A stretch of DNA of 64,000 nucleotides from Cyanidioschyzon merolae (Eukaryota). The stretch lies in the NCBI GenBank assembly GCA_000091205.1, contig AP006501.2. One strand, written 5' to 3'. Each line of letters starts with the position of its first letter. Within the stretch, counting starts at the first letter, position 1. The notes below the pieces were generated by a model. That model was not told the origin of the DNA. It saw only the letters and a program-made list of their open reading frames with translations, and ran no database searches. The position numbers were made by a program, and so were the translations under genes. Below, piece after piece: positions 22,745 to 52,584 of this stretch.

Positions 22745-23138
22745 GAGCATTCTTTTCCAAAAACAAAAAATCCAAGGGACAGGTATCGACCTGGATGTTG
22801 GGAATCCTTAAGGGCCATCATCGTCGAATTCGACGAAGAATAACCGAAGAAGAAATCCTCTTTTCGTCGACTATCGAGCGAACATGAGCGAACGATGCGG
22901 ACGAAGAAGACCGAGAATGGATGTAGGCGAGAAAGTGTGTGCCCGACGAGACGATGACGAGACTGTAGTGGCACAGAGGGCGCGGGTTCTGGGAATCCTT
23001 GGAAAATTGCGTTCAGCCAGAGGCAATAAACGTATGGTGCTCGTGAACCGAGACTTTAACGCCGTCATCAATATCAGACGATGGGCGGTGCTGAAGACGA
23101 GACACGAGGAGCTTACGCGATCTAGCTTTGTGGAGTAG
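22745..23138 (+). pseudogene. TnpB/Fanzor-like nuclease relic R1 (C-terminal fragment)
   Basis: In one frame it reads 'LFVDYRANMSERCG' (22860-22901) and then 'LVNRDFNAVINIRRW' (NRD... at 23046-23081). This matches the TnpB pattern of TSKxC plus Zn ribbon followed by RuvC-III 'RDxNAAxNIRR'. An in-frame stop lies upstream at 22809-22811. It is collinear with R6 at a constant offset of 19,692. Confidence 0.5.
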
Positions 23139-24125
23139 CCTCTCATGGGCGATGTGTACAGGGAGAAGCTGAAACCGATAGCAGGTCGCCTGTGTAGATA
23201 GGCTGGGAGGCGTCTGCACGTGGGTGTCAGTTTACGATCTCGAGGCGACGCCTCCAGTGGTGCGGAAAGGCCGTTCTGTCTGCGCTAATGCGAGACGCGT
23301 GGTGGTTACCTGGGCCCTGCTTTTCCCTTATAGGCTATTACGTGAGCCCTTGGGCACCTTCAGCACAGAAACGTTTCCAGTCTGCAACGTGGCGGGATAA
23401 GCGAGTCGAGCTCGGAGCGCTCCGTGTACAATCACGCTGTCTCCTTTCGCAAGTTACGATGCGTACCTGTTTCGCGGCTGGATTTTTGGCACCAAAAGCG
23501 CTGTAGGTACCGGGTTCAGGTACAGTTCCATCTCGCCAGATGCTGTTGGTGTCGAAGGATCGGCTTCAGGAGGAGGTAAGCGTCCGGCATTGCGTACCAA
23601 GAGGTCTGCGACGAGGCGTTCATCGCGCAGTTCGTCGCATCAGCAGGCGGGCACTGCTTGTAATCGACTGCCTGAGCGCTTCATTGAGACGATTCATAAA
23701 AGCCATCGTCGCCTTCAGATATCACTCTGAGAACTGTTTGGACGCTGCAGAACGATTCTCGGGATGCGCGAAACATGCCCAGAGTCGGCACCTGGCATGG
23801 GGTAGGGTCCTGGTCTGTTGTGGTGTAGGATCCTTAAATCTAACCAGGTTTCTGGCGATGCGCATCCGCTTCTGATGACCACGAAAGAGGCCTCGTTCGC
23901 TTCACTAGCGCATGTGTGTGTTCGGCAAGTCCCAGTCAAAATGCCCAACAGGTATAGAGGCTTGCTCATTCCAAAGGAACAGCGGTTATCGAGTCTACAG
24001 TGGGCGCTCGCGCCACCGCGGGCTCATTCTCACACGCTCACCGCAGAGGTTCGTTTCCTAACGAGCAACTCGCGCGTCTGCAGGCGCATTCTCCAACGAG
24101 ATGCCGACCCTGAAAACGTATATTT

Positions 24126-24282
24126 CGCTGTATTCCAAGTCTGGAATCATCCGAGGCACTAGATGCGAAGGCAGCCGGTTTCGGGAAGTGCTCGTCCCAG
24201 TCTGATACCGGAAATCCCGCTGTATTCCAGGTCTGGAATCATCCGAGGCACTAGATGCGAAGGCATCCGGTTTCGGGAAGTG
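24126..24282. repeat. Two direct copies of a 65-bp unit, 92 bp apart
   Basis: 'CGCTGTATTCCA(A/G)GTCTGGAATCATCCGAGGCACTAGATGCGAAGGCA(G/T)CCGGTTTCGGGAAGTG' occurs at 24126-24190 and 24218-24282, upstream of the YggS-like gene. Confidence 0.85.
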
Positions 24283-24562
24283 GTAGTGCCTCCATCCGAT
24301 CGTATATCTCGTTGTACCCCAGGTCTGTAATCATCCAGATCACGACATACATAGGCATTATGTGTCGGGTACTCGACATTCCGCCTTGCTCGTGCTTCGC
24401 GCTGGCATACGATACAAATGAAGCACAGCCGCAGTTGCGCAGTCGCGGTTGCCAGGCCCGCGTTGCGTACGGCTGCGATGCCCGCCGGAGGACACAGCCT
24501 TGTGCTACGCTGGGCTCGTGCGGCGTTGCGCCCGTATACTGTTGGGCTCCGTTGGAGACGGT

Positions 24563-25372
24563 ATGTCGGTTAGGTGGAAGCGGCTTCAAGCACAGCTCGG
24601 TTTCCTGTCTAGTGGACTGCGCATGCAGCATACAATTTCGGAAAGCAAAGCACAAGGTGAACGAGCGCAAACTATAGCAGAACGACTGTGCAAGGTACGG
24701 GAGCGAATTCAAGTCGCTGCGCTTGCCGCAAAACGCGACCCTGCACGGGTTCGCCTAGTTGCTGTGAGCAAAACGCACGCTGCCGGTACCGTGCGGGAGG
24801 CGTATGACGCAGGTCAACGCCACTTTGGGGAGAACTACGTCCAGGAGCTGGTTGAGAAAGCGGAACAGCTACCGACAGACATAAACTGGCACTTTATCGG
24901 ACACCTGCAGAGCAATAAAGTGAGGACGCTGTTGAGTGTCCCGAACCTCTGGTGCGTTGAGACTGTCGATCGACCCAAGCTTGCGAATACACTGAACCGC
25001 CTCATGGACGAGTTGCGTCCCGACGGAGGTCCGATACCTGTGATGGTGCAGGTGAATGTCAGCGGGGAAGCGAGCAAGGCCGGGATAGAACCCGCTGCCG
25101 CTCCCGAACTCGTCGAGCACATCCTGCAGGCTTGCCCGCGGCTGAAGCTCCTCGGTTTAATGACGATAGGCTCGCCGGACCCGAGTCCAGAGCCTGTGGC
25201 GTTCCAAAGGCTCTCGCACTTACGAGACCAAATACAGGACCGGTTTAGGTTTCAAGAGCCGCTCGAGCTCAGCATGGGTATGAGTGATGACTTTGAGGCG
25301 GCGGTACGCATGGGTAGCACCAATGTACGCATCGGATCCACTATATTCGGGCCGCGTGTCTATCCGCAATGA
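24563..25372 (+). CDS. PLPBP: YggS/PROSC-family pyridoxal-phosphate homeostasis protein
   Basis: The track start at 24449 is TTG. In-frame ATGs lie at 24563 and 24623. The family blocks are 'LVAVSKTHAAGTVREAYDAGQRHFGENYVQEL' (PLP lysine) and 'WHFIGHLQSNKV', followed by 'LSMGMSDDFEAAVRMGSTNVRIGSTIFG'. Confidence 0.85.
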   Translation: MSVRWKRLQAQLGFLSSGLRMQHTISESKAQGERAQTIAERLCKVRERIQVAALAAKRDPARVRLVAVSKTHAAGTVREAYDAGQRHFGENYVQELVEKAEQLPTDINWHFIGHLQSNKVRTLLSVPNLWCVETVDRPKLANTLNRLMDELRPDGGPIPVMVQVNVSGEASKAGIEPAAAPELVEHILQACPRLKLLGLMTIGSPDPSPEPVAFQRLSHLRDQIQDRFRFQEPLELSMGMSDDFEAAVRMGSTNVRIGSTIFGPRVYPQ

Positions 25373-26664: not shown

Positions 26665-26739
26665 AACCTCATAGACTCAGTTGCAGCTCTGTAGGCATTG
26701 GTGCTCAAACGACGGGTTTCGGGTCTATCAGCCATCGAA

Positions 26740-27783
26740 ATGAATGCCGAGGCGGCGCAGGAGAGTCAGGATCTTTACGCGAAAGATTTGCGGCATGTTG
26801 CGCAAGACTATTTCGTGGTGAGGACTCTCTGCAAAAGACTCGTTGTGGTGGAGTTAGAACTCTACCGAGCTCGGCGCCTGTGTAGAGCTTGGGCTCAGGC
26901 GCTAACTGCACAACGCCAACACACACCGCCGTGCATGCACGAGCAGCAGACGAGCAGCGAACTTATATCTGCTGCGGCTCATGGCACTTGTCCTTATCGC
27001 GAAGCAATGCTCTATCTATTCCGTCAGGTAGCGGAAACAGGTTCCGTGTCGGAGTATTTACGTGACGTTGAGCACAGGGGCGCTCGTGCGTCCTCTTTGA
27101 AGGCTCTGCTGGAAAGCCGATCGCCACCCACGCAGTGGACTCGTCACGAAAGCGCCTCGGCGGACTCTTCTGCAGCCTCTGGTCTGGCACATGGGAACCG
27201 AGTCCAGAGTCAGAGGGCACAAGCGCGGAGCGCAAACGTCAGCGACGGCGCCGAGCGGGCGTCCGCGCAACGGGTGCCGGCTCCGTCATCCTCGGAACCG
27301 GCGATCATGCAGGGCCAGCAGCTACCAGCTAACGTCGGTACCGATTTGAGCCAAGCCGGGCATTCGAAGCGACCATTGCAGTTCCAAACGCGTGGTACCA
27401 CGGGCCCCGAAATGGGCCCGTCTCGAACGACGACGCTCGCTGGATTCCGAGCAGCGCAAATGCCAACGAATGCTAGTGCATCTCAACAGAACCGGTGGCC
27501 GCCCTGGAACGAGCAGTTCATGGAAGCGCTCATGGAGAGCGAACGCGACACCGTTGCTGGGCTTATCGAACAAGAACGACTACAGACGCAGCTCAACCTT
27601 CTGCGCGGTGTCATGATGGATCTTGAGGTTCTGCTCGAACGATGTCCTTGCGAGGACGCAGACGGAGCGATTGATTGCATCGACAGTGCAGATGACGACG
27701 AGAATTCGTTACCACCTCTGGCTGAGAATGGCCATATCCGCAGCAACAAGGCCGAGATGTCGACCAATACCTTCGCATGCTAG
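26740..27783 (+). CDS. Hypothetical protein (347 aa), predicted coiled-coil ends with a Q/S/A-rich centre
   Basis: The track start at 26698 is TTG and the first ATG is at 26740. It is the longest ORF at the locus and has no competing gene. No family was recognised. Confidence 0.5.
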   Translation: MNAEAAQESQDLYAKDLRHVAQDYFVVRTLCKRLVVVELELYRARRLCRAWAQALTAQRQHTPPCMHEQQTSSELISAAAHGTCPYREAMLYLFRQVAETGSVSEYLRDVEHRGARASSLKALLESRSPPTQWTRHESASADSSAASGLAHGNRVQSQRAQARSANVSDGAERASAQRVPAPSSSEPAIMQGQQLPANVGTDLSQAGHSKRPLQFQTRGTTGPEMGPSRTTTLAGFRAAQMPTNASASQQNRWPPWNEQFMEALMESERDTVAGLIEQERLQTQLNLLRGVMMDLEVLLERCPCEDADGAIDCIDSADDDENSLPPLAENGHIRSNKAEMSTNTFAC

Positions 27784-28924: not shown

Positions 28925-30487
28925 CTATCGCCCGCGCCCGAGTTCCTGCGGTGACACGCGAAGCGTGATCCAGGCGGGAAGCCCCCACTGCGGATCCGAG
29001 ACTGCCATCGCTTCCACAATTCGCTCATTTGCCTGAAGTGGATGACTCTCGGGCCAGGTCTGGAGCGTCGTCACGCTCGCGTAGCCCTCTCGGATGGCGA
29101 CCAGGTCGGAGTTCACGAAGCCGTACAGCGGCTCTGGGCGCCCTTCTGCGCCAATGATGACCATTTCGGCAGAGTCTGGTTTCTGTCCAGCACCACTTCG
29201 AAAGACATCACGATAAAAAATCGCTCCTAAATGCGTTGTACGCCATCGTCCCCAATGCCAACGGGCAGGGAAGTTCACATTCAGTACCAAGTCGCCATAA
29301 CAGAACGCACTCCACACCAGATCCAAAGCATCCTCTGATGCAGCATCTTCGTCTGCTGCGACGGATCTGTTTACCTCTGTGGCAGGAGCCAGTGCTTTGC
29401 CACAGACATCACAGTGCCGCCGAGGCGTGCACCGCACACTGCTTGCGGTACCGGATGCCGTAGAGGTCTGCAGGCCAGGTCTCGGTCCATGTTCCGAGCG
29501 CCCGTGCAGGTGCAAACTCCTACACGGATCGAGACGTCCAGCGTTGGGTGGCGTTAACGGTAATCGTTCCACGAGCAGGGATACCAGAAACGCAGCGCCT
29601 TGAACGCACGCCTCCTGCGAGTCGCGTTGCAACGGTTCGCCTGCGAGACTGAAGGCTACCGCTGGGAGACCATAGAATCCGGCTTGTCGTGCACCGGAGA
29701 ATGTGCCGCTATGCAAGATATCTTGAGCGAGATTCGCGCCCAAGTTCGGCCCAGAGACGACTACGCGTGCGCATTTACCGAGGCGGGCGAGCAGTCCGTT
29801 CGGCTCGATAGCCGTGATCACACAGTCAGCCGGCGAGCCTGCCAGCGAGTACACACCTGTCTTGAGATCCGCTCGGTGCACCAGCTCCATAGGCGTCGCA
29901 AGTGTCAGTCGGTGGCTGCACGCTGATTGGTTTGTTTTGGGTGCGATCACTACCACGTCGAGTGCGTACTGTTCCTCCAGCGCCGCGGCCAAGCGCAGCA
30001 GCAGCACGGACTCAACACCGTCATCGTTCGTTAAGAGAACACAGGGTTTCAATTCAGTTGTTGTCGTGGGGTGCTGCATTTTCCAAAGCGCACCCCGCTT
30101 TGTACACGGGCCGCCAGGCAGACACTTGAGAAGCACTCGGCTGGTACCTTGGTCGCGTTGCGTGCACCAGTGCCTAAGACGCTGGGCTCGAGTGCGGAAA
30201 CGCCAGGGAGTGGACCTATTTTTCCAAGTTGCTTGCAGCGCAACGTACATCAAGTCATCCAGCACTACAAGTCGTTTGAATACCACCTGGATAACCTGTT
30301 CTATGCACTCGAATAGACAGCAGCATACAGTCGCGACACCTCGACGAATTTGCGTGCTGGGGCGCTCTCTGTGGAGCTGGCGATAATGTTCCTTGAAATG
30401 AATGCCTCCGCATGGCGGTGCTTCAACGAGCGTTTTCCCGGAAAGGCGGCGGCGGCGGCACGGTTGCGGACTTCTGGGAATACTCAT
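28925..30487 (-). CDS. surE: SurE-family 5'/3'-nucleotidase with N- and C-terminal extensions
   Basis: SurE core 'VLLTNDDGVESVLLLRLAAAL...VVVIAPKTNQSACSHRLT'. There is an ATG at 30487. An alternative ATG at 30079 ('MQHPTTTTELKPCVLLTNDDG') would give a conventional N-terminus. Confidence 0.8.
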   Translation of the reverse strand: MSIPRSPQPCRRRRLSGKTLVEAPPCGGIHFKEHYRQLHRERPSTQIRRGVATVCCCLFECIEQVIQVVFKRLVVLDDLMYVALQATWKNRSTPWRFRTRAQRLRHWCTQRDQGTSRVLLKCLPGGPCTKRGALWKMQHPTTTTELKPCVLLTNDDGVESVLLLRLAAALEEQYALDVVVIAPKTNQSACSHRLTLATPMELVHRADLKTGVYSLAGSPADCVITAIEPNGLLARLGKCARVVVSGPNLGANLAQDILHSGTFSGARQAGFYGLPAVAFSLAGEPLQRDSQEACVQGAAFLVSLLVERLPLTPPNAGRLDPCRSLHLHGRSEHGPRPGLQTSTASGTASSVRCTPRRHCDVCGKALAPATEVNRSVAADEDAASEDALDLVWSAFCYGDLVLNVNFPARWHWGRWRTTHLGAIFYRDVFRSGAGQKPDSAEMVIIGAEGRPEPLYGFVNSDLVAIREGYASVTTLQTWPESHPLQANERIVEAMAVSDPQWGLPAWITLRVSPQELGRGR

Positions 30488-30514: not shown

Positions 30515-31845
30515 CTCGCTCTGTTCCTGCTTTTCGGGGGCTTCCGAAGTTGTTTTAGATGCACATCATCGATTGAGGACCTGCAGCAAAGAGTGCTGAC
30601 AGGTTCATACGTAGTTCAAAGACGCTCAGCGGGTCTTTTCGGAGTGGCTGTTTCGATGCGGTGCAGCTGGGCGGATTCGCTCCGTCTCGGGGATCGAGAT
30701 GATTCGCGACGCTCGCGAACCAGGAATCGTGAAATCACGGATAGCATGATCCAGTTCGTACGGCCAAGGCTCTACGTTTCACTTTTCCTCAGGTCTAGCA
30801 CGCTTCGAGATTAAGATCTTGATGTTTCATGGCAAAGATTTGGCGCAGGTTTTCGCGCTGCTGGATGCATAAGGAGAAATGCTCGACATCTTCCATGGAT
30901 GACTTGTTCGCGAGTGCGTACCAAAAGTTGGCTGTATTTGTCGCATTCAATCATGGATTATTTTCGAAATATGAACCCTCAGTTTGTGGCCGTTGGCGAA
31001 ACGGATTCCACGGTAGCACGATATCTCTCACAGGATCTGCCACCAGACGCTCCCATCTATCGTGCTTTTCATAGCTAGGTATCTTGGACTGGGGTTTGAG
31101 GTATCGCATCGACCTCATTCAATGGAGAATGCGTCGTCGCTTTGCACGAAGGAGGCCTGAACGGATCGAAACTTTTCGACTTGTTCTCCAGGCGGGATTT
31201 TCATTCCGATGCTTGTTTCATGACGGACGACATCGCTTGCCGCAGATTCTCCTATCGAATGGAAGAGCGTGCGCCTGCTTGTGCATCTGCCAGAGCAGTC
31301 GTCAATGGGATCGCCCAGGTAATGCCAGTGCTCGTCTGGTGCGGTACTGGGCGCGGAAACGAATTAGGGTATCGGCAGGAGCGCTCTGTAACCGTCCAGG
31401 GCATCTGGTGAGCTATGGAGTGCGCCTCGACGCAATACGGGGCGGTCCACAGGGTAGCAGGTGTGATGTACGGATCGAAACGCCTGACAACCGCCATGCA
31501 TGACCGTTGGGAAAGGAGCACTCGGGCCATAAACAGAGAGAATGACAATGACGAGCGAGGCGTAGACTGCAACCACCGCCTGTGCATGACGTGCGTAGAC
31601 GACAACCCGAAGCAGTGCCATCGAGACCCAAACGCTGACATTCACATTACAAGGGTGCTGACAACGGAGCTGCCGGGAAACGAGACACCGGGCATAAATG
31701 GAACCGCAAGTCAGAGAGAGGAATACGAAGCAATCGCTTAAAGAAGCCCGTGAACACTGACGATAATCACCCTGAGAACAGACACAAACTTTACTGCCAA
31801 CGACCGCGTTGGACGACTTGCTTCCTTCTTGACTGATATTCATGC
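30515..31845 (+). pseudogene. TnpB/Fanzor-like nuclease relic R2 (near full length, multiple stops and frameshifts)
   Basis: The ordered motifs are 'ALLDA*GEMLD' (Asp codon 30864-30866), 'AMECASTQYG' (from 31415) and 'CNHRLCMTCVDDNPKQCHRDPNADIHITRVL' (HRD... at 31619-31654). It is collinear with R8 at offsets of 17,836-17,889. Confidence 0.5.
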
Positions 31846-31860: not shown

Positions 31861-32952
31861 CTACACCCGAAGGAGGAAATCGTGTTGGCAATATCTGAAA
31901 TCCCTGTTTTGCTGGAACGATTCGAAACCTGTAGGAAATCGGGCCGCGAACACTGCCTGTCCGCACTTGTTTTTCTTTTTTCGTATGACGCAGCGTCGCG
32001 CATCTTGTCGCGGGTCACCGAATACGCGATCGCGATCAGCATCAAAACGAGCATCTATGATACTGCACCGGATTTTCAAATAACACGGCTCACATTGCAG
32101 TCTTCGCTTGGGCATAATGGTTCCCTGGAACGACCATCCGCGTGCCGAGCGTACCATGGGTGCCCAGAGCGGCGCTTAGAATGCTGGTTCGTATGCTGCA
32201 CCAAGACGAAACGACTTTGGCGTACTCTTGAGGTCCTCGGCTCGAGGGCGAACCCCCGGGTACCTCGTCGTCAGGCAACGGAGCCATGACCACTCGATTT
32301 GCGACGCGGTCGTAGCTGCTCTGACACGCTGACGCATCGAACGGAGCGTATGGTAGCGATCCCAGTGCCAATGGAACCGAAGCTGCTCGAGTGCCGCGCG
32401 ACTACGCGAGCTTTCATGGTGGACCACGGGCTGCTGGTGCGCGCTGTTGTTTTCGGGCCCGAAGAGAATTCATTGATTGGTGCATTGCGTTCCTTTTTAA
32501 CAACGAGTCCGTTCCTCTATATTTCCAGCGAGAATTGGCGCTGCGAGATGGTTTCTTTTGAACAGCTCTCTTGAATCAGGCCGAGCTCGGTTGGCCCAAT
32601 CGCTCCCCGGAAAATGAAGGACGCTTCGATGCGGCCCCCGGTTCTGGTGCTGCGGTGAAATCGTCTGCGGCTGCAGAACCGGCCGTAGACACCATTGTGA
32701 AGCCCAGTAACCAGCGCTGGCGTCGTTCAAAACTCAATGGACATAAAGATACAGGGTCGTGTCACCGGTCTGATGGTAGTGCTTTCCAAAATGCGTCGCG
32801 AGGTCGAGACTCACCTGTAGCAACTCCTTGGCATCACGAGAAGCATGGATCTCGCGGAGCGTCTGGCCTCGGGTGACGGCTGTAACGGACGCACATCCAT
32901 CGCAACTGGTGCAGATGGATCCAGCGGACGCGTATCCTTGGCCTGAGGCCAT
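31861..32952 (-). pseudogene. TnpB/Fanzor-like nuclease relic R3, tail-to-tail with R2
   Basis: The minus-sense fragments appear in this order. 'SICTSCDGCASVTAV' (Asp codon at 32899-32901) comes first. 'VSLDLATHFG' follows about 32 aa later. Then come 'TIMPKRRLQCEPC' and 'KCGQAVF...FQQNRDFRYCQHDF' (31876-31908). The fragments lie in three different frames. Confidence 0.35.
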
Positions 32953-33062: not shown

Positions 33063-33584
33063 TCAAGTAGCCGGCTGAAGCCGGATACAGTGATCCAGAC
33101 TCCCGTCGCAACCGCTGTAGTAGTAGCGTATCGCTTGTCTGCCCGTTGCATACGCACACGATACGCGTCCGTCAAAACAGAAGAAATACTCGCTTCCCGA
33201 GCGCAGCACCGACACCGTCAAGTTGTACTGCCGCGTATCGGGTAAATCAATAGCTTCTTCCAGCCCCAGTACGAGCAAGTTGCATCCCCCGGAGGCTGTG
33301 TATGAACAGTTCCGAAACTCCGCCGAGCTAGAGCTTTCCGCTGCACACGCGAGCTCCGTCTTCGTGCAGTGCAGGTCCCAGGTGTCAAAGTTCAGGTGCG
33401 AGTCGGGTAAGGCAAACGTCGTGACGTTCGCGTCCGACAGACGCAAAAGCGTCAAGTCCTGTTCCGTCAGGGAATCAAAAAAAGGCAACACTGGGCGCGC
33501 TCCTTCAATATGAGTACATAAAAAGCTCAGAAAAAACACCAAGTAAACCGTAATTATCGCAAAGCGTCCAATATGCCTATGCAT
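33063..33584 (-). CDS. Hypothetical Cys-rich protein with a predicted N-terminal signal or anchor
   Basis: ATG ORF of 173 aa. It has a hydrophobic N-terminus ('FAIITVYLVFFLSFLC') and eight Cys residues. No family was recognised, and it could instead belong to decayed sequence upstream of R3. Confidence 0.3.
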   Translation of the reverse strand: MHRHIGRFAIITVYLVFFLSFLCTHIEGARPVLPFFDSLTEQDLTLLRLSDANVTTFALPDSHLNFDTWDLHCTKTELACAAESSSSAEFRNCSYTASGGCNLLVLGLEEAIDLPDTRQYNLTVSVLRSGSEYFFCFDGRVSCAYATGRQAIRYYYSGCDGSLDHCIRLQPAT

Positions 33585-34419
33585 GATACGCTATACGTGC
33601 ACAAGTCAAATGAATTCGATCGTCAAGACCAATATCGTGTACGCAATGGATCCGAAACAATGCACCACGAAAGGCGCTCTCGATACATGGCACGCTCAGG
33701 CGCCCAATTTGGTACCACGCGATCCGAGCACGCGCGGAGGCGTCCCCCACGGATCGGCGTCCTGCATTTGTCGAGACGCCACGAAACGAATGGGCGCACT
33801 CGTTGCAGGACAATTTTGTGATCGTGGACACGGGCGAGGCGTGCGTCGCGGATCGCCTGGGACCCTCAGTCGAATGCGTGCGTGTGGTGTGTGGGTTCAG
33901 GTTGTGATCGTCGACACGGGCGATTTTTGGAGCGAGAATTTATACGCACCAGGGATCCCTGATTGCGCGATAGAACGTCAGCGATCGGGAACGCGTCCGT
34001 CGATCCGCCAGCCCCCGAGTTCCAGTGTCCCTAGTAGACCGCGCGGGGTTTCTGATCATTTCGTTGATTCCTCTGTGCGCCGAGTCTGCGATGAGTGCCC
34101 GTGATGGCAGGTGTAGCGTCGGTGCGGACGCTGCACGGAGATGCAGTCGTTTTTTGCCATGCCCGTTAGGGCATCGTCTTGAGGTGTCGTGCACTCGAAA
34201 AGGGAGTCGGGTCTCTCTCCTTCGAACTGTTATCGAAGCGTGTGCGTGTGCAGACCTGATTTCGCGGGACAAGACGTGGGAGACAACTCGTTCGTTCACG
34301 TAAATGCATGGCGGAAACGAGTTACGCCTCTGCAGTCGTGTGTGGAATGAGTTGACGGCACGTGATGCGGGCCCATACGGCGCATTCGACCTGTGTGAAG
34401 CTACACGGTTCGCTGGACT

Positions 34420-39104: not shown

Positions 39105-39479
39105 GAGCTTGACAAGCTCGTGTTCCCAGCGTCCCAGGGTATGCTGGCTGCGGGATCACGGTGAGCGCAGCGCGCCGCGCAGCGTCGGTGCGGGCGCTGC
39201 ATGTAGACAGAACGGCTTTTCTAGACTGCAGAGGGCGTTGGCTCGAGGGGTGCTTCACCCGACGTAGAGTCGGAATTCATCATCATGATACGATCAGAAA
39301 GTCTGCGGATGCAGGCTTGTCTTCGCTGCACGGCACGCTGGAGAAACTTGGTTGTTAGGATGAATTCTGGGAGCCGCCTCTCTCCTTCGTGCTCCTGCAA
39401 GGAATGCGTTGTTGTTGGTTGGCAATGCGGGTTTGTGGTTGACACCCACCCACAGTGGGTAGGCGCAGAAAGCGCACTG

Positions 39480-41284: not shown

Positions 41285-41739
41285 CGATAAGCAGTTGCTG
41301 CGTGCGATCGCTGCAACGCTACACCAACGTACAGAGGTGAACGTCTATCATAGAATCTGACGCTACACACCAGTGCAGAGACTGATGCGTCCCAGGCGTT
41401 CGCGCGTTCGATCTCGAAAACGATGACTGTTATGTGCTGTTATATCCGTAGATGTCCAGCCAAAATTTTTTCAACTCGAGACTGCTCCACCCATTCTGTG
41501 GTGGATGGCAGGCGATCGACTCCACAATGCAATGTATCGTACAGATCATAGACGAAATCTCTCTAGGATGTATTCTGTGCGAAACTGTGCAAGGAGGACT
41601 GTATTTCTTGTTCAGGTGAGTCATATCATAGTGCTTAGATGGTTGAGGATTACTGAAAGGCACATGTAGATGCGCTTTGCGCAAAAAATATTATGAAAGA
41701 CTGCTCATCGTCAATGATAGAAAACGAACCGTTGATCAG

Positions 41740-42840
41740 CATATGGAAAGTAAAACCAACGATCGTAGACACAGCAAGTGTCTCTGTTTCTCAACAGCTT
41801 GTTCACGTGGTACTCAAAACACTGGGGTACAGTCACAACAAAGTCCGCGTTCACGCACGACTCTCTTCCACAGAAATCGCAGCGACAGCGTTCCTGAAAC
41901 GTCGCGATCGCTATGATACAGAGAAACGTCGGTTATTTTTTTCAGTGTATGAGACTTGCTTCAGAGGATACGGTCGGAACGTCCATGGGTATTTGCAGAG
42001 AGGGAGCCCGTTGTGTCTATGACCGAACTCGAAGAGATACAGGTTATCATCTTCTATTCTAGCAGCAGTGGATCCATTTGGTGGCCTCAGTTTCGCTTGT
42101 AAAGAAGTCTCGTAGAACAGCAGCAATGCTGTCGACTCGTTAAAGACTTTTCCCCGGACCTCTGGCGACGTTCTTCTACTGTACAACGTAGAATTTCAGC
42201 ATTCACTTTGCGTTTGGGCTTTTCCGGATTCTATCGGGGTGCAGCTGCTTTTCACTCTTCCGTCCTCTCCGAGATTCAACGCTATAAAGAGGAGTGGTTT
42301 CTATGGTGAAACGCGTTGATCGGTCCATTGTACGAATCGCCGAGGCGTTCAGGACACGGTGACGCCAGGGCACATTTTGTCTGTCTGCCGCGAGTGCCTC
42401 TCCCGCTGCGAAATTCCTCACCCGAGTGCTTAAAGAGGTGCATTCATTTTCAAAAATAAAAATCCAAGAGAAGGCTATACACATGCAAACTGGGTATTCA
42501 GGAGTGCCATCATCACTGGATTTGACGAAGAAAACAGTAAACAAGGCCAATCCCAGAGGAACAGGAGAAGACCAAGAAGCACAAGCCGGAGGCCTGACGT
42601 CAATGGCCGCAAGAAGGACCACAGTACAACGAGATCGTAGTGAAAACCTGTCTTTTCGGGTATTTCGAGGATCCGTGCAAACAAAAGTTGCGAAATGGCC
42701 ATCAGAAACCGTGTCGAGTCGTGCGCCATGAGTTTTATGGACGCCTCTTCAGGCCGAATGCATTTGGTTAAGGTCATGCAACGCGACGTGACGGGCATCA
42801 AAATGGGCGAGGTTCCAGTGGAGTCTCTCGACCAGATCTT
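41740..42840 (+). pseudogene. TnpB/Fanzor-like nuclease relic R6 (heavily decayed)
   Basis: It has an N-terminal 'IVDTASVSVS' (41762-41791). Its C-terminal part is collinear with R1, with anchors 42440/22747, 42506/22814 and 42524/22832. The RuvC-III position has decayed to 'NRVESCAMSFMDASSG' (42707-42754). Confidence 0.35.
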
Positions 42841-43344
42841 CATTCGCCACTTGATGTTTCGCACAGGGCAAACGTCGAGGAGAAATGAACGAGTGCATGC
42901 CATTCACGAAAATGACGCCGAATATCGCTTCGACGGTGCTCGACACAAGCTTGACTCGTGTATTTAAGAATACGGGGCGATCAAGTACCTCATGAACCCG
43001 AAGAACCATTTGACTATGACCCTTGAACGCATCATCATACGCTTCATGTTTGCACTCTACCCGGGCCACTCTCGCATCGGGACATGGGCCATCATCATCG
43101 GCATTACGAACGATCGCCAGCATGAACGGGAGATCGAATTCATCGACAAGAAGACACCGCGCAGGAGAAAGAATGAGGACTCTGTGATCTGTGCCGCTAT
43201 TCAAGAGCACCGTGCGGTCTTGGGGCTGGTCAATCCAGCAGAATAGGTATCCGATATGAAAAAGAAAGATGTTATCCTCTCATCCTGCGTTATTTCGTGT
43301 TTCTGAGTCGAGAACTCGAATGCAAAGCCGAAATATAGCAGAGT

Positions 43345-44250
43345 GTGGGAAAAATAGTGACGGGGAAACGGAAGGCTGCGCTTCTGGGGAAACGCTTCAA
43401 CGTGGTTCCAATGTGCAACATCAAGTCACATATCGTGACTATCTACTCCAGAGTCCTGCACGGCATCATGAGGCAGCTCTACCCGGAGTTCAATCGACGG
43501 AAGATAGAGCTCACCGGTGAAAACCGGGAGACTCATTGGAAGAGTATCTTCGATTGCAAACGTCTGAAAACGAGCAAGAAAAAGGTATTCGCGGGCAGGA
43601 TCGAGACCGATGGGGTCTCCATACGTGTACACTACCAGCGGTTGAAGGCGGGTCGTCCTATTGTGTCCACGGCTTCGCCGTGGCGAACCATGAAGATGAG
43701 AAGGAGGTGGATCCTGCGACGCAGTGACCTATCCCTGGATAGGTCACTGCGTCACTATCAACCCGAAGCACAAACCGAACACGAATATCCATGCACACAG
43801 ACGTCGCCAACGTTGCATTCTAACAGCAAGCATCCGAAGCGCAACCTCTTCATCATCATCGTAACACCCCGCGGTGTCTCGATTCGACACAGACCAGGCG
43901 TCGTTTTCATACTGGCGGTTGAGCGCAGCGACAGAGGCTTTTATGTTGCGTGCGAGACGCACCGAGGCCCGCAGCACCCATCCCCAGGGCGTGTACTGCA
44001 AAGCGAACTGTAAACCGCGCTGCGAGGCATCCGATGCGAAGCACCCGAACACAGGCCCCCGGCACCTGAGCACCCTGGAATCCGCTCAAATATGTCCAGT
44101 TCGAATCGGTACCTCTGGGTGCGCTCGCACCGACACCATGTACCCGTTGGGCAGCAGGATCCCCGCAGACACTCGTTTACGACCAGTATCTACGATAAAC
44201 GCGCCATCGACGAAAAAAAGCAGTTTCAGAGATACAGTGTGTTCCGCTGT
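43345..44250 (+). pseudogene. TnpB/Fanzor-like nuclease relic R7 (N-terminal half best preserved)
   Basis: '[29 protein letters not shown]' (TDGVS at 43606-43620) is followed after a frameshift by '[12 protein letters not shown]' (Asp codon 43710-43712). A possible 'INAPSTKKSSF' lies at 44195-44227. Beyond 43760 the assignment is weak. Confidence 0.4.
43718..43753. repeat. Perfect 36-bp palindrome (17-bp arms, 2-nt centre)
   Basis: 'GACGCAGTGACCTATCC CT GGATAGGTCACTGCGTC', read directly from the sequence. It starts 6 nt after the RuvC-I-like Asp codon of R7. Confidence 0.95.
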
Positions 44251-44728: not shown

Positions 44729-46876
44729 CTATGACACAAACTGACGGCGATCTTGTTCGTCACGCTTCCCATGCGGGTTGCTCGCCCGAAATCGTTGCCC
44801 TGAAGCAAGCCGTTTCCGAATGAGGTCTTTCAGGCGATCGCGATTCTTCCACTCATCTCCAAATCCGCCACCGCCTCCGCGTCGTCGAATTTTCTTCGCT
44901 CTCTCGAGGACGTCGAGACAGATGCGCGGCGGTGCACTGAAGCCGAAGCTTTTCGCCACCGCCGCAATGTCGAGCTCGTGCACATTGAATACATCTTTCA
45001 TGGAGTGACTCGCATACGCTTGGAGGTAGGAACGGAATCCGTCCCGCGCAGATTTCTGAAGATAGTAATTGCCTTCAACTAATTTTTCCAGCTGGGTCTG
45101 AATATCAGCAAGTTTCTCTTTGGGAAACTCGTACTCGTTCAGAGGCACTTTGGCATCGCGCAGATGCTGCAGAAACCCGACTTCCGATGGCAACAGAAAG
45201 AGAATCGCCCGTCCGCGACCATGAACGCCTCGAGCGGTGCGCCCCACCCGGTGGATGTACTCTTTCGGCTCGTCCGGTGGGTCGTACTGCACAATCCAGT
45301 CGACGGCGGGAATATCGAGACCACGCGCAGCTACGTCCGTGCATAAGAGTGTGGCGTGCTCACGCCGAGCGAACTCGAAGAACGTCGATGTTCGCTTGCT
45401 CTGTTTCTGTTTCCCGTGCAGATCCAGAACAGGGACGTCTATATAGTTCAAAAGCTCGGCATAGAATTTCACTCCGTTGCAGGAAGACATGAAGACGATG
45501 ATCTTCTTGCGCTGATTGCGCTTCAAGAACGTGAACAGCAAGCGGAAACGCTGCTCGCTGGGCACAATCGTGAAGCCCTGCTGCAGGCCCTCAACGGTGG
45601 CAACAGGCTGTTCTGCGTCGATACCCAGATGAAGCGGTTTCTGCTGAAAACTTACTTTGGCCAGATCCTCCACTTTGGTTGTTTGAGTTGCGGAAAAGAG
45701 CATTGTCTGCCGGGTCTTTGGCAGTATTCGCAGAATTTCATGCATCTCCTCTTCAAATCCGATTTCCAAGCAGCGATCCGCTTCATCAATCACGAGAAAG
45801 CGAAGGTGCTCAAAAACAAAGCCCCGTGTGGACTGTAGATGGTCCAGCAAACGCCCAGGCGTCGCAACGAGAATATTTGTACCGTTGATGAGCTTTTCAG
45901 CTTCGGTTCGGCGGTTTGCACCACCCATGACGATCGCTCGGGTCTGGTGATGATGTGAAGCAAGATCGTGAAGCACCCCAAAGATCTGCATCGCCAGCTC
46001 GCGGGTAGGCGCGATGATGATCGCACCAGTGCCATTACGCGGCATCCACTTGGCCTTGTACAGCAATTCAACAATGGGGATCAGAAATGCGAGCGTCTTA
46101 CCGGAACCTGTTCGCGCAGAAGCGAGAATATCTCGACCAGACAGCGCTAGCGGGATCGCTCGCGCCTGAATCTCTGTCATCCTTGCGAAACCCATTTCCT
46201 CAATGCCTCGTAGCGTCGGCTCGGATAGCGGCAGTGAATCGAAACGATGAGGTGTCAGAAGGCCTGAACTCGGTTTCGGTTGCTCCTGTTCCGAGGCGTG
46301 CTCCGACGATAAGCTCTGTAACGCAGGAGACGACTTCTGTGTCACCTCTGGGCAGGGTCTGGCCAGAGGCTCCATCTCGTGCACTGTTGCTCGCGAGGAT
46401 GCAACCTCTTCATCTGCGGGCGTTCTTGCTGCAGCGTTCTGAAGCTCGGTTTCCATCACCGGAGCTGGCGTCCGCAACTCTGCACGTTGTAACTCACATA
46501 TCGAAACCCCCGCGTCTTCATTCGGGTTCCCAGCAGCTGCGTTGGTTGACGCGGAGGCCGACTTCACCGACTCGGAGCAGCGTTCGCGCTTGGCGTGCAA
46601 CTGATCGGTGAAAGTCGCAGCCTGCGTGCGCGTTCTGGATGAACCGTAAGCGCCAGCGTTCCTCGCGACGACTTGTGCCGCACCAGAAGCAGGCCTGCTC
46701 GCGGTGCTCGTCAAGCGCTCCGTCGCGCTAACAGAAGATACGTCAGCGTCGCGAGCGAGCAAGTCGCTGTGACAAGCACGAGGGCGCTCTCGCGCCGATC
46801 GCTTCCGGCTCGCGACTACGTCCGCCTGCTGCTTCCGTTTGCTGTTCTCGCTTGCGTGCCGGATCCGACTTTTCAT
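44729..46876 (-). CDS. HAS1: DEAD-box ATP-dependent RNA helicase, HAS1/DDX18 subfamily
   Basis: The track start at 46960 is GTG and the first ATG is at 46876. It aligns near-continuously with DDX18. Matching blocks include '[10 protein letters not shown]', '[14 protein letters not shown]', 'PTRELAMQ', 'VIDEADR', 'SAT', '[39 protein letters not shown]' and '[17 protein letters not shown]'. Confidence 0.9.
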
Positions 46877-47240
46877 ACCTATAGAGGAGCGATCCTCCGG
46901 TTCGCTGCTGAGTTCTGTCGATAGATCCACAAAAGAGGTTGACTCCGAAGGCGCACACACTCCACACTACACCGCAAGCTCGCTACGAAACGTGCAGTAC
47001 CGTTGCCTTGGACAACAATGCTCGTATGCAACGAACAAAAGAACACCTGGATACCCACGACGCTGCTCGATCTCGTGAAATGAAACACGCCTTGTTGGCA
47101 CTTCGTGAACGTGTACCCCAGGAACTAGGCCTATCGCTCGACTTGTTGTACCAGGTGTGTAGACGCACTGCGCCAGCAGCAGCGGCAGCAGCAGTCGGCG
47201 CTCCTGGCAGATGATGCAGCGCGTCCGATCGTGGCATAAC

Positions 47241-47272: not shown

Positions 47273-47273
<1 letters not shown>

Positions 47274-47395: not shown

Positions 47396-48142
47396 ATGCT
47401 GGCGTGCTTTCGCTGTCTGGTATGGTTTCGAGTTTGTTCTGCGTCTGGCGTACTGCGGCGAACGCTGCGTCAGCGCTTTTGCGCAACAACGTCCGGTACG
47501 ATCGGCAGTAGTAGTAGTGCTGGTCAAGTGACAACGGAGCCAGCTGCGTCCACCAATGTCCAACGCTCTGGGTCTAGTCAAATCGAGGGAACGCAGCAGA
47601 CAGCTCCGCGAACTGCATCTGCAGTTGCGCGTCAAGTGAAGATATCCCATCGCAAACTGAACGTCGTCTGCAGCTTGGTCCGTCGACTCTCGGTATCCGA
47701 GGCGGAGCGACAGTTGGCGGTTTGTAGGAAGAAGGGTGCGCGAATCCTCCTCAAGCTGCTGCACCAGGCAATGGCGAACGCGCGGAACAACCACCAGATG
47801 GACCTGGCTCGCACGTTTGTCCGTGAGAGCTTCGTCGGCAAAGGGCAGTGTTTTAAGATTCTGCGGCCGTGGCACGGGAAAGGCCGATTTGCGTTTCACG
47901 AGAAAAAATACAGCCACGCGACCATCATTCTGGAGGAAGCTAATGCAGCGCAGGACTCTAGTCGATCAAGAGATACCCGGGATACAGGACGGGGATTCAG
48001 TTGGAGCGCTCACCGGAAGGCCGTCAAAGGAGAGCGTCCTCTGCCGCCGCTGCCTGCCGTATGGAATCTGACTGTAGATCCGTCAGGAATCTACCGAAAC
48101 ACGCATCGCGAGCCCGATGATACGAATCAATCCCGTGGATAG
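47396..48142 (+). CDS. Organellar (mitochondrial-type) ribosomal protein uL22
   Basis: ATG ORF of 248 aa. The uL22 core reads 'KISHRKLNVVCSLVRRLSVSEAERQL...KGARILLKLLHQAMANA...FVGKGQCFKILRPWHGKGRFAFHEKKYSHATIIL'. A presequence-like N-terminus is present. Confidence 0.8.
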   Translation: MLACFRCLVWFRVCSASGVLRRTLRQRFCATTSGTIGSSSSAGQVTTEPAASTNVQRSGSSQIEGTQQTAPRTASAVARQVKISHRKLNVVCSLVRRLSVSEAERQLAVCRKKGARILLKLLHQAMANARNNHQMDLARTFVRESFVGKGQCFKILRPWHGKGRFAFHEKKYSHATIILEEANAAQDSSRSRDTRDTGRGFSWSAHRKAVKGERPLPPLPAVWNLTVDPSGIYRNTHREPDDTNQSRG

Positions 48143-48403: not shown

Positions 48404-49675
48404 CTCGCTCTGTTCCTGCCTTTCAATTTTTTGGCTTTCTTAGATGTGCAGCAATAGGTGCTTATGGATGCATATCTAGTTTAAGGATGCTCGCTGCTCT
48501 ATTCGTAGTGGCGCCGTCCACTCGGTGGCGCTGGAATTCGTTACGTCACCGGAATCAAGATGATTCGCAACGCCTTTGAATGAGGGTTCGTAAAAGTACC
48601 GATATCTTTATACAATGCATACATATGAGACTCCGATACTCAACTTAACTCTCGAGTAGTGTGCTCAGATCGCGCATTCTGCGAGTTTTCGATCTATCTG
48701 TTTCAAGCAACTCGCGGGCGGGGGATTTCGTGCTGCTAGACGGAAGGGGAAATGTGCTCGAGGTTGTCCCTAGACAACATGTTGAAAAACTCCTTCTTAA
48801 GGTTCACTGAACTTGTCACATCAGAAAATCGATTTCATTCGAAAGAGAAAATGTCCTCCGGTCATAGGCCATGAGCGAGACGGCGTTCCATAGCAGCACT
48901 ACGTATATAACAGAATACGCTCGGAGAAGCCCACGGGTCTTCTGTTCTGTACGATAGGGGATGGTGGACTCGGACTTTAGCCACCACAACGATCGCTTGG
49001 AATGGAATGTGCGAAACTGCTATGCACGAGGGCGGCCTAGACGCATCCAAATTAGTCGTCTTGTTCTCTAGCCTGGATATTCCACCGGGTGCTTGTTTCA
49101 TCGAGAACAGCATCACTTGCTACAAATCCCTTATCAAATGGAACAGATTGCGCTTCATCATAGGGTACTAGACTGAATGCGGAAACCAAGCAGAGCATTC
49201 GCGGGTGCCTGCGGTGGTCTTCAAAGGCATCTGGCGAGCAATGAGGGACACGTTTCCGCGGCACGTTCGAGTTCTCGGAGGAGGACGAGGAGGAGGAGGA
49301 CGATGAGGAGGGCATGCGACGAAAACGCGGGAATATATGACAACACCCAGGTGTCATAGCTCTGAAGCGCGTCCCCGAGTTGTCCACAAAGGAGTTTGTA
49401 GATCGCAGCTTCCGCCTATGCATGACATGCGTTGACAACAGCCGGAAGCGACTTTATCGAGAATTTCACACTGTCATCAGCATCTTGCGACGGATGACTA
49501 CAGAGCTGGGGGTAAACGAGCGAGGGTCGTACTGAAAACCGGAAATGAGCGTGAGGAGATGAAGCCAGTGCGGGGAAAAAATCGCAAATGCTGATGCTGG
49601 TATCAGTGAGAAGAGACCCAGACTTTTACATACGCGCCCGTTTCAACAAAGCGGACCTTTTCATCTCTATACTGA
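48404..49675 (+). pseudogene. TnpB/Fanzor-like nuclease relic R8 (near full length)
   Basis: The motifs are 'VLLDGRGNVLEVV' (48730-48768, RuvC-I-like), 'RVPELSTKEF' (49368-49397) and 'RLCMTCVDNSRKRLYREFHTVISILRR' (LYRE... at 49452-49493). A frameshift separates the RuvC-I and C-terminal parts. An (GAG/GAC)n insertion lies at about 49270-49310. Confidence 0.5.
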
Positions 49676-50252
49676 CACAGGTTTAGATCCGCGCATATGA
49701 GGCCGCGGAGCAGGTTGCTGACTTTGTTGCTGACTCGTCCACGCTACGGCTTGTGGAGGCAGCATAAACGATCCGCTCTGCGAAACGATCCGCGACGCCA
49801 CCTGTGCGTCTCAGGCACCAAGTAGCAGGTTCACAACACGGTGCCGAGCCCGTGGGGCATCTGCGGCTTGCCACTCGGCCAATGTATGACGCCAACTGTA
49901 CGTTCAACGAGTGATGCCAAACGTATCCGACATCGGATGTCTGCGCACCGGTAGTTCTCTTTGATAGGGCAGCGCAACACGGGTCGCACCAGCGAGCGGA
50001 CGTTCATCCGGTGTACATATGCAAGTGCGCGAATGTGGAGGTTGCAGTTAGAGGCACGTTCATTTCACAAGCCACGGAGCTATGCGCACAGATGGTGTAA
50101 TTCTCCTGGTACAAAAGATACGGACCGGAACTGTCCGTAACATATCCTTCAGATGCATGCAATTACACGACAAACGAAGCGCCGTCATCCGTCGTGATTC
50201 ATCTTCATTCATGCACAAGGTCTTCGCGCTCTTTTCGCGCTTTCGTAGGCGC

Positions 50253-51362
50253 TCACGCGGTAGGTTCACCATTTGGCCCCGGGCCCTGAGTTCCCCCGTC
50301 TGACCAAGGACGAATTGCTTCCTGAGTGTTGTCTTCGTTGGTTCCTGGCTCATTCGCTTCTTCCTCTTGCCACAAGTATACGGATCCTTCCAGCGCAGGC
50401 ACCGTTTGCAGAGCCATCTGTGCACGAAGGTACGCCATGAACCATTCAACACCGCTGCGGAGACGCTCCAGATGAAGAGCCGGCTGGCGCCCGCGTAGAG
50501 GCTGGAGCGTCCCTAGTCCCAGGATCGACTCGACGAGCGGGCGCAAGCGCAGGCGCGTGTGTTGGATGTTATCCAACGCGTGCTGCTCAACCCACCCGTC
50601 CAAGTTTAAATAGTACATCGAATATCCCTCAAGCTGGCGGATTCTCGTTTCCTCCTCCCAGGAGGTGCTCTCCTGCCACCCGGGGGCGTCCTGCTCGGGT
50701 CGGAGCCGGAAAGCGCCCAAACCCAGAAGAGGGACCCAGCGCCGTAAACGCCCACGCATGATCCATCGAATGTAAACGGTTCCCTCGCGCTCGTCATGGA
50801 AGAGTGATGTAATTTCAATGGAGCGCTCCGAAAATAGAAGCTTCCCGTGTAAACGAAGCACCCAGAAAACGGCTTTGTATGCACCGAGTCCTTGCAGGAC
50901 GTTTCCTGAAGTGCGGTCCACCAGCGTGATTGTCGGCGAGTATACTTCAAAGTTTGGATCTCGTTCAAAAAGGTGGGGATAGTCCGAACGTAAGGTCTCT
51001 ATTACAGTGCCAGCGTTCGCTGCGTAGTCTGGGGAGCGCTTGTTCCGCTGGTCCCTCTGGGTGTCACGATCCTCTGACAGCCCCGGAAACGGGAACCACT
51101 TGCTGCACACAAGACTCCGTGTCCCCTTCGGTTGCCGCTTTCCATTTACCGAAAAACGGGGTCTGTTTGTCGGTCGCTGACGGCTGCCTTGGTCGTTCAC
51201 CGAGTGTCCCAGCCAGTCGGAGACGCCCGCGCAGGTGACGTCGCGACGCACCCATCGAACGCTCGGCGACAGAGAAGTTTTTCCTGTGGCTGCTCCTCGT
51301 TCCAGGCCCCACCACGCAGGATATGCGCAAAAATTCAGACCTCTGTAGTCCAAAGGATTCAT
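50253..51362 (-). CDS. DUF2358-like (NTF2/SnoaL-fold) protein, plastid/cyanobacterial type
   Basis: The track start at 51383 is GTG and the first ATG is at 51362. The core 'IETLRSDYPHLFERDPNFEVYSPTITLVD..G..LQGLGAYKAVFWVLRLHGKLLF....IEITSLFH.....VYIRWIMRG' matches my memory of DUF2358. Confidence 0.6.
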   Translation of the reverse strand: MNPLDYRGLNFCAYPAWWGLERGAATGKTSLSPSVRWVRRDVTCAGVSDWLGHSVNDQGSRQRPTNRPRFSVNGKRQPKGTRSLVCSKWFPFPGLSEDRDTQRDQRNKRSPDYAANAGTVIETLRSDYPHLFERDPNFEVYSPTITLVDRTSGNVLQGLGAYKAVFWVLRLHGKLLFSERSIEITSLFHDEREGTVYIRWIMRGRLRRWVPLLGLGAFRLRPEQDAPGWQESTSWEEETRIRQLEGYSMYYLNLDGWVEQHALDNIQHTRLRLRPLVESILGLGTLQPLRGRQPALHLERLRSGVEWFMAYLRAQMALQTVPALEGSVYLWQEEEANEPGTNEDNTQEAIRPWSDGGTQGPGPNGEPTA

Positions 51363-51642
51363 ATTGGTGTTCGAAACGAGCACACAGCGCAGTCACTCTT
51401 TTCCGGGTGGCACTCGTGCGCAATCCCAACAGTAGTCTAATTGCGCGAGTGCTCTCCTGCTGCGAAACACGTAGAGGTTCACAAAGAGCGTGCAGGAATC
51501 AGGTGAATCTGGCAGCAAAGTGTCAAATTATTCCATGGTTATACATTAAAGTCCAGAACGTTTTGCGGCATGGTGTAGAGGCGGCGCAGTGGCATCTATC
51601 TGCGTAACGGCACCTAATTGAATATCTAGGGCTCAAACTATA

Positions 51643-52584
51643 TTAAATGGACAGTATGGGTACACATGTGGCGAGACGCTCGTAGACGGCATCCGAGCAA
51701 TGGAACGAGCTCAGGACGCTGACTCCTCGCTAGACACGAAAAATTTAGGTCGCTTTCCCCTGTGATCAATACCAGCCTATGCTGGTCTTTTCTGCGGCTG
51801 CATCCTTTGCTACGCTCTTACATCCGGTTTTCAATACCCTGGGTGGTACGTTCCCTTCAGACAGTTGTGAGCAGATGAAGGATGATCACGGCAGTGTCGT
51901 AGTCCCGAAATCGCTGCTCTTCGCTGTTGTCGTCGAATGTCATGTACACGTGCAAGTTGCGATCTGCACTGTGCTTGCCATATTCGTCTCCTTTGGACAC
52001 AGCCTCGGTGCGCTGTTCGATGCGGTGACACGCGATTTTGGCCAAATGGTCTAATACGTTCGCAACGCAAACGTCCTCCTTTGAATGCCACTCTGTTTCA
52101 CGTGCACGCTTGCTGCATCGCTTGGTACATGCCTCTGGTGGATACAGGAGGCCGCTCTCGAAACCGTTCTCGGTTTCCACGCCCGGCGCCGCACGCTACC
52201 GTCACGAGCTTCTTCTGCGCAATCCAATCGAAGGGTACGCTGGCTGCCGCACACCCAAGCGCACGCTGTCCCGTTCGATAACGCACGATCCGCTTGCCTC
52301 AACGGCCCTGATGACGCTCTAGATAGCGCTAAACCATTGAGAACAGACTGGATTTTGTAGGATTATCTGTATTCTTTTGTCTGCGGTTTTCCTAATAGAT
52401 GAAAATCAATGGAACGTCCACTGTCCGTGATGAAACATGCACCAGTGCGATCATCCAGGATGGAGAGCAAGTCGACACACTTCGATTCGTCTACGCTCCA
52501 TTCTTGGAAAGCAGTGACGTACTCTCCACTGGAAGCGATTGATGCGAAGGCTGATATCCGAGTCCAAGACGCTTTCCGCTGCAA
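51643..52584 (-). pseudogene. TnpB/Fanzor-like nuclease relic R9
   Basis: The minus-sense motifs run in order. 'ACFITDSGRSIDFHLL' (TDSGRS at 52411-52428) is first. 'VTVACGAGRGNRERF' (about 52170-52195) is second. 'TFDDNSEEQRF' (about 51908-51937) is third. 'FHCSDAVYERLATCVPILSI*' (51643-51687) is last and parallels R8 'LYREFHTVISILRR'. Confidence 0.4.

Follow-up and report, generated by a model that had tools for sequence, protein, structure and literature searches.

Dead transposons, probably including relics of two Fanzor1-like lineages, in the long intergenic spacers of a Cyanidioschyzon merolae window

The genome of Cyanidioschyzon merolae is compact (16.5 Mb) and nearly without introns; what, then, makes some of its intergenic spacers long? 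We address this question in a window of 64,000 nt of strain 10D (the whole stretch of DNA analysed), with emphasis on positions 22745-52584, where a first-pass annotation had placed nine decayed relics (R1 to R9) of a single TnpB/Fanzor-like nuclease family. Fanzor1 proteins are eukaryotic RNA-guided RuvC nucleases of the TnpB type. The explanation that we favor, and consider very probably correct, is that the long spacers are long from dead transposon insertions belonging to the Fanzor1 family CMe-1, to a repeat family here called family B, and to long interspersed nuclear elements (LINEs). Each long spacer would have gained its extra length from one or two such insertions. Three of these would be decayed, deleted or truncated copies of CMe-1/CMe-1A, four would be copies of family B, a ~1.3-kb element whose 3' half would come from a very different Fanzor1-like gene, and two would be 5'-truncated LINE-like copies, with two short pieces as LINE 3'-tail fragments (TE-N2_CMe). 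The relics would persist where they are since only intergenic DNA tolerates insertions in a compact genome.

Seven of the spacers between the mapped genes of the range exceed 1.4 kb, and with nuclease and LINE probes we found transposon relics in all seven. The claim that every such spacer holds a relic thus stands, though not all of the relics are nucleases. No match to any of the probes used on the long spacers was detected in the shorter ones, as had also been noted. The identity of the blocks, their decay and their share of the spacers are directly observable: relics make up 49-80% of each long spacer, and what is left once they are subtracted, 316-1464 bp, is comparable to the lengths of the short spacers, so that the extra spacer length is accounted for by the relics. 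Moreover, in a blastn self-comparison the long spacers were found to have diverged repeats in common (58-65% pairwise identity), at both the DNA and the protein level, an indication that the repeat signal is not due to chance. The tally in the range is two CMe-1, three family-B and two LINE relics plus two small tail fragments, with a fourth family-B copy just beyond the end coordinate, 52584. Two points weigh against this account: ~20-50% of each long spacer has no assigned relic, and the figures for relic density cover the 64-kb window alone. The suggestion that such a density is unusual finds no support; the family, with its ~150 copies, was described as early as 2013.

One Fanzor1 family, CMe-1, has been described in C. 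merolae (Bao & Jurka 2013, Mob DNA 4:12; PMC3627910). Its element CMe-1A has a 3169-bp consensus and ~150 copies at ~80% identity to that consensus, without terminal inverted repeats (TIRs), with target-site duplications (TSDs) undetermined and with its class left unknown. The first 635 bp of CMe-1A constitute a separate repeat, TE-N2_CMe, present in ~70 copies, and some CMe-1 copies still encode an intact protein (PMC3627910). The CMe-1A consensus and the 734-amino-acid (aa) CMe-1 protein, both taken from the supplements of PMC3627910, served as our probes.

When all six-frame fragments were searched by hmmsearch with narrow and broad Fanzor1 hidden Markov models (HMMs), matches were obtained at the three CMe-1 loci only. 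The R1 locus (nhmmer E = 2e-177 and 8e-32) consists of two pieces of the consensus. The piece corresponding to consensus 5-1071 comprises an antisense LINE tail (the TE-N2 module), the 5' leader and the first ~55 codons, and the piece corresponding to 2830-3092 is the RuvC-III region, which contains 'NRDFNAVINIRR' and aligns by tblastn to residues 625-729 (45% identity, E = 7e-17, two stops). RuvC-III is the sole RuvC motif kept at R1, as it is in the copy at 1834-2385 (nhmmer E = 5e-19 and 6e-17; tblastn to residues 646-726, E = 3e-7). The latter copy aligns to 22664-23216 at 64.7% identity over 564 bp and, since both have the same internal deletion and the alignment spans it, the two relics form a deletion-derivative subfamily. 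At the third locus, named here for its TDGVS motif, 42428-43724 matches consensus 864-2162 at 81% identity and corresponds to Fanzor1 residues 1-419, with stops, ending right before the 'DPG' of RuvC-I (nhmmer E = 3e-267; tblastn E = 1e-85 and 4e-55). The full RuvC-I/II/III set and an intact open reading frame (ORF) are found in none of the three copies, all of which contain stops. The 970-bp 5' module of the TDGVS locus (41457-42427) is also present in a paralogous metagenome copy (L034:7484-8453, 68% identity); within CMe-1, the two would form a subfamily distinguished by its upstream region.

The assignment of CMe-1 itself to Fanzor1 was examined through its relatives. A homology search returned 43 of them, all in hot-spring metagenomes, and a profile search of 1.8 billion representatives returned 3700. 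An intact CMe-1-type Fanzor1 ORF of 752 aa (P0076) lies on a 49-kb hot-spring metagenome contig (L001:6001-8259), and activity of the family may persist in relatives of strain 10D. A 'KHEE..ATQEVQDND' segment inside P0076 is tandemly expanded relative to the consensus. Against the PDB, the narrow family profile (A2) gave no relevant match; the 99-sequence profile (A4) alone matched, and it did so to the Fanzor1 structures of P. parasitica (9CF0, E = 9e-27), S. punctatus (8GKH, E = 1e-19) and G. theta (9CER, E = 8e-15). These alignments pair the TDG strand, the DPGR of RuvC-I, the DEFRTS of RuvC-II and the NRDxNAAxNI of RuvC-III, and residues D484, E656 and D725 vary hardly or not at all over the 99 CMe-1-related sequences. 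Given this homology to solved Fanzor1 structures with the RuvC D-E-D residues aligned, the CMe-1 family is, by its sequence, Fanzor1. A Pfam search for OrfB domains had been proposed as a test that could refute the nuclease assignment. Ten relic fragments gave no Pfam match, yet intact CMe-1 relatives gave nothing significant either (best PF07282 at E = 0.23). Pfam is thus uninformative for this family, the negative being a false one since intact members fail as well, and a caution follows for similar cases: Pfam would wrongly reject true Fanzor1 relics.

The right end of CMe-1A is not uniform. Many copies lose similarity ~80 bp short of the 3' end, at consensus ~3083-3092, and others reach 3169; the early end is seen in the window at 23221-23225 and 1834-1837 and in metagenome loci L002, L034 and L083. 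Subfamilies with differing right ends are suggested, and the difference may be relevant to a guide-RNA scaffold. A GCCGCCA/TGGCGGC hairpin lies near the 3' end, and the predicted fold of consensus 2871-3169 has z = -2.6, weak for an fRNA call.

Family B, which has further copies in metagenome loci L001 and L034, contains R2, R8 and, to judge from the end coordinate of the range, R9. We derived a majority consensus from its copies, and this contains ~215 stop-free codons in a single frame of the 3' half, with three stops persisting further upstream in the same frame. When each copy was projected onto the open frame via the DNA alignment and the result compared with the Fanzor1 alignment, hhalign returned a match with Prob 86% and E = 5e-6 over 131 columns; independently assembled fragments of family B gave Prob 90.7% and E = 1.3e-6. 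The match pairs 'VIVGxGTG' with 'VVAYGAG', 'WExLTT..CH' with 'VDEFRTS' and 'YRDxNxAIxI' with 'NRDxNAAxNI', the 'CMTC...CHRDPNADIHI' of R2 being the RuvC-III equivalent. The order of the motifs is that of Fanzor1, with the same 105-residue spacing as in CMe-1. In control comparisons E was 0.3-0.7 for the remaining five frames and 0.34 for the reversed alignment, and the lowest value from 40 column shuffles was 0.09. Two family-B copies stand head-to-head at 52989/52992, the minus-strand copy starting from profile position 127 and the plus-strand copy from 628; either an inverted duplication or a nested insertion could have produced the pair.

Could family B instead be an unrelated repeat, non-coding or derived from some other gene, that resembles the Fanzor1 RuvC-II and RuvC-III regions by chance? 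Several results lean that way and count against a nuclease origin. The consensus is built from five copies only, hmmsearch with Fanzor1 HMMs gives E >= 2, and tblastn with Fanzor queries does not detect the family. The similarity is confined to the C-terminal ~130 columns: the N-terminal half (245 columns), which includes 'VLLDGRGNVLEVV', matches at an unrelated position with E = 0.12, and hhalign thus recovers neither RuvC-I nor an N-terminal WED/REC region in family B. The family-B profile (A3) has no relevant match in the PDB, and among 5.8 billion clusters there is no intact family-B protein, only ORFs of 90-108 aa. We nevertheless regard a chance resemblance as unlikely, since the hhalign match (E = 1e-6 to 5e-6) falls in the one frame that the consensus reopens, with all 47 controls at E >= 0.09, and since the three paired segments follow one another in the right order and at the right distance. 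The family-B DNA profile also matches the RuvC-III codons of R1, faintly (E = 0.06). The 3' half of family B thus probably descends from a very different Fanzor1-like gene, and we are confident, short of certainty, in reading the family as the fossil of a distinct Fanzor1-like lineage. It would then be a second, very diverged Fanzor1-like family in Cyanidioschyzon, present as fossils only; the 2013 survey listed one family.

R4 and R5, which had also been read as nuclease relics, match ORFs with reverse transcriptase (RT) in tblastn searches. The relic that contains the 'VAIEHL' of R4 starts in a decayed RT FADD box, 'LIDAVVLLAP', takes in the C-terminal ORF and ends with the 3' tail. It matches P0307 (E = 5e-35), P0285 (E = 3e-45) and the ORF of metagenome locus L007 (E = 7e-37) by tblastn, and L007 by blastn at 61% over 1984 bp. 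The 'VAIEHLGEMIIKMKRCIALARMLLSDP' of R4 corresponds to 'DEKAHIDEMIAKMHRGTAIARPFLSDP' of the ORF that contains the RT. R5 is a CCHC knuckle, 'HCPCCGNEIPDTLT*LGLQCPRWKQER', in an element with 86-88% DNA identity to copies in L001 and L007, and it matches the CCHC motif 'HCPCYRDEIPETLTYVGVQCPRWKQER' of a 255-aa ORF on the minus strand of L001. The two relics resemble one another and L001:4440-5669. In homologs of the 255-aa ORF (P0307, P0310) the upstream extension is a reverse transcriptase with a FADD box, and a longer LINE copy, L007, matches Pfam RVT_1 above the cutoff at L007:1981-2562 (E = 9e-18). By homology, therefore, both relics are 5'-truncated, LINE-like (RT-encoding non-LTR; LTR, long terminal repeat) elements and not nucleases. 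No endonuclease domain was found, the upstream 376-aa ORF of L007 having no Pfam match, and no clear TSD was seen around the full-length copy in L089 by eye, no systematic search having been made. The case carries a caution: motif-spotting had confused the CCHC knuckle of a LINE with the zinc ribbon of TnpB.

These assignments bear on the first-pass annotation as it was originally framed, that is, nine relics of one TnpB/Fanzor family, each with the full motif series. The peptides that it quoted do exist in the six-frame translation, at 23040-23084(+) for R1, 31616-31660(+) for R2, 35463-35480(-) for 'VAIEHL', 39695-39747(-) for R5, 48730-48768(+) for R8 and 43603-43620(+) for 'ETDGVS', and R1, the TDGVS locus and probably R2 are Fanzor-derived. 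The full ordered set, however, occurs at none of the loci: only one end of the protein is left at R1, which has RuvC-III alone, and likewise at the TDGVS locus, which stops before RuvC-I, and the 'VLLDGRGN' of R8, offered as RuvC-I, lies inside a family-B element but has no support from hhalign (E = 0.12). RD.NA..NI occurs once in six-frame translation (R1), its relaxed form twice (R1 and R2) and TDG[VT] twice; looser motifs are ubiquitous, with 249 matches to C..C and 29 to TS..C. The count of nine nuclease relics is too high, R4 and R5 being relics of RT ORFs, and the window probably contains at least two unrelated Fanzor1 lineages. We therefore give the original version very little credence. 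TnpB/Fanzor ancestry holds for R1 (E = 7e-17) and the TDGVS locus (E = 1e-85) and probably for the family of R2, R8 and R9, and fails for R4 and R5. In sum, the observation is partly confirmed, its interpretation is partly supported, and its core, the presence of Fanzor1 fossils in C. merolae, was already in the literature.

Stops and frameshifts, which had been reported for the copies, are indeed seen in the relics. Because every copy has stops, frameshifts or the absence of at least two of the three RuvC motifs, none in the window can encode a working nuclease. Published work on other Fanzor1 proteins makes it likely, by analogy, that the ancestral proteins were RNA-guided nucleases; the window copies are presumably without present function. 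Divergence amounts to 19-29% between the copies and the CMe-1A consensus (Jukes-Cantor 0.22-0.37) and to 35-42% among the copies themselves, values that indicate an old burst. A past burst with intact copies elsewhere, as had been proposed, agrees with PMC3627910 and with the intact 752-aa ORFs in related hot-spring metagenomes. Might the host have put some of the relics to use, for instance as promoters, untranslated regions or small ORFs? Relics do abut gene starts, the end of one LINE relic lying ~100 bp from the start of the ARP gene at 35862 and the relic at 39167 lying ~60 bp from the start of gene 37800-39104, and the S0 relic is kept in metagenome contig L002, and this contig and the window encode identical ACC-synthase proteins. 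The divergence and the stops and frameshifts argue against co-option, which we think improbable. Exact look-ups of two window proteins returned no orthologous contigs for the relic spacers of the range, and in a 16-mer metagenome scan ~13 of 120 loci were real, the rest being mostly unrelated contigs.

The LINE relics also bear on the structure of CMe-1A. Inside its TE-N2_CMe module of 635 bp, CMe-1A reproduces the LINE 3' end in reverse complement over the first ~535 bp. A 540-bp alignment to L007 is 69% identical, tblastn gives E = 9e-27, and a fainter similarity extends to ~780. By alignment, then, the non-coding 5' module of CMe-1A is an antisense, A-tailed LINE 3' end, which is new here. 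In every copy examined, at ~10 independent loci, three of them in the window, the terminus reads '...GTTTTGTCATCG' followed by a short A-run and then by unrelated flank. At R1, the LINE-tail part is homologous to L007 4015-4343, and the T-run at 21862-21869 beside it is an A-tail on the opposite strand; the fragment at 32011-32247 likewise has an A-rich tail on the opposite strand, at 31970-31981. The LINE 3' terminus is the exact point at which similarity ends in at least four independent composites, and the inner ends of the tail-anchored copies vary, falling at 256, 494, 566, 636, 680, 1071, 3081 and 3168. A fixed A-tailed terminus with variable inner ends is a signature of non-LTR retroposition and suggests that composite CMe-1A spread as an antisense, LINE-tailed RNA.

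Alternatively, consensus 648-3169 may be a Fanzor unit of its own, 2.5 kb long, whose left end has repeatedly received LINE insertions. The Fanzor unit, starting at consensus ~648, adjoins LINE or TE-N2 sequence in several contexts and in both orientations (L001, L007, L042/L065), and such varied arrangements fit an insertion hot spot at the unit's left end; the junctions could reflect either a LINE hot spot or the way in which the composite formed. According to a 2026 review, there is no evidence that Fanzors spread by retrotransposition and no expected advantage in their doing so (PMC13565253). We put forward only tentatively, and at somewhat less than even likelihood, the proposal that CMe-1A is a LINE-dependent retroposon carrying its Fanzor1 gene in antisense, and not a DNA transposon of unknown class. 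If so, retrotransposition would here have spread a Fanzor nuclease gene. The LINE tail and A-run of CMe-1A and TE-N2_CMe make the idea of a Fanzor gene riding on a retroposon testable in a 16.5-Mb genome. As for the spacers themselves, the finding as first stated matters little: C. merolae was already known from a 2013 publication to hold Fanzor1 relics, and spacer lengthening by dead transposons is ordinary.

Table 1. Transposon relics, related modules and junctions, and genes
Feature	Coordinates	Strand	Composition or basis
CMe-1A relic, internally deleted (outside range)	1834-2385	-	consensus 786-985 joined to 2832-3086
CMe-1A relic, internally deleted, R1	21875-23225	+	consensus 5-1071 joined to 2830-3092
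CMe-1 variant relic, TDGVS locus	41457-43724	+	970-bp alternative 5' module, then consensus 864-2162
Family B, has R2	30541-31845	+	repeat family; hhalign against Fanzor1
Family B, has R8	48406-49683	+	repeat family
Family B, holds range end 52584	51683-52989	-	repeat family
Family B, partial (beyond range)	52992-53638	+	profile 628-1285; nhmmer E = 1e-132
LINE-like relic, 5'-truncated, has R4 'VAIEHL'	33938-35764	-	RT-ORF homology
LINE 3'-part relic, has R5	39167-39969	-	tblastn with P0285, 84% identity, E = 7e-87
Small TE-N2/LINE-tail fragment	23225-23286	-	consensus 208-272; weak: nhmmer E = 0.003, blastn 77% over 71 bp
TE-N2_CMe/LINE-tail fragment	32011-32247	+	consensus 27-256; nhmmer E = 9e-11
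Antisense LINE-tail module	window 21875-22510; L007:3806-4345; L001:4440-4963		CMe-1A consensus 1-635
Fanzor-unit/LINE junctions	L001:5669/5675; L007:4345/4355; L042:1771/1784; L065:1696/1709		
Genes in range, first five	24449-25372; 26698-27783; 28925-30487; 33063-33584; 35862-37181		
Genes in range, last five	37800-39104; 40553-41284; 44729-46960; 47396-48142; 50253-51383		

By exact protein look-up, annotated C. merolae 10D proteins (BAM82963-BAM82982), encoded on a chromosome of 1,282,939 bp, are identical to five ORFs of the window, and tRNA and Rfam scans of the window gave no match. Elsewhere in the window, 8563-9256 is an 81-bp tandem array of at least seven units that are 96-97% identical; it encodes a 27-aa repeat, 'SQSPSSQYLVPLYTRSLHHEASxLKTV', in the ORF at 8319-9239 on the minus strand. 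A 92-bp direct repeat (78% identical over ~170 bp) occupies 24110-24369, immediately upstream of gene 24449-25372.

How do these relics compare with known systems? The closest is the published CMe-1/CMe-1A family: its 3169-bp consensus (63-81% identity) and its 734-aa protein align directly with three loci of the window, and what is seen in the window agrees with the published lack of TIRs and TSDs and with ~150 copies at ~80% identity. They differ in that the window copies are halves or deletion derivatives and in that 41457-43724 has a different 970-bp 5' module. Unlike the characterised Fanzor1 proteins (8GKH, 9CF0, 9CER), the window copies are dead, and the CMe-1 proteins are without an obvious CxxC...CxxC zinc ribbon. 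With the TnpB of IS200/IS605 elements such as ISDra2, to which it is ancestrally related, CMe-1 has in common the RuvC-III motif 'RDxNAAxNI', the feature that the first-pass annotation had recognised, whereas no TnpA is present, although no search aimed at it was made, its proteins are longer (~730 aa against ~400 aa), its RuvC-II glutamate is relocated and its host is a eukaryotic nuclear genome in place of a prokaryote; even intact CMe-1 members fall below threshold for the TnpB Pfam models OrfB and Cas12f-TNB. The LINE relics have A-tails that are short (5-12 nt) for typical non-LTR elements, with no endonuclease domain identified and no TSD seen; like non-LTR retrotransposons, they are truncated on the 5' side, terminate in an A-rich 3' tail and encode an RT with a FADD box as well as a CCHC motif at the C-terminus. 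The 3' end and A-tail of the LINE, finally, are also carried by TE-N2_CMe and by the 5' module of CMe-1A, which in this resemble tail-sharing, non-autonomous partners such as short interspersed nuclear elements (SINEs) and HAL1-type elements.

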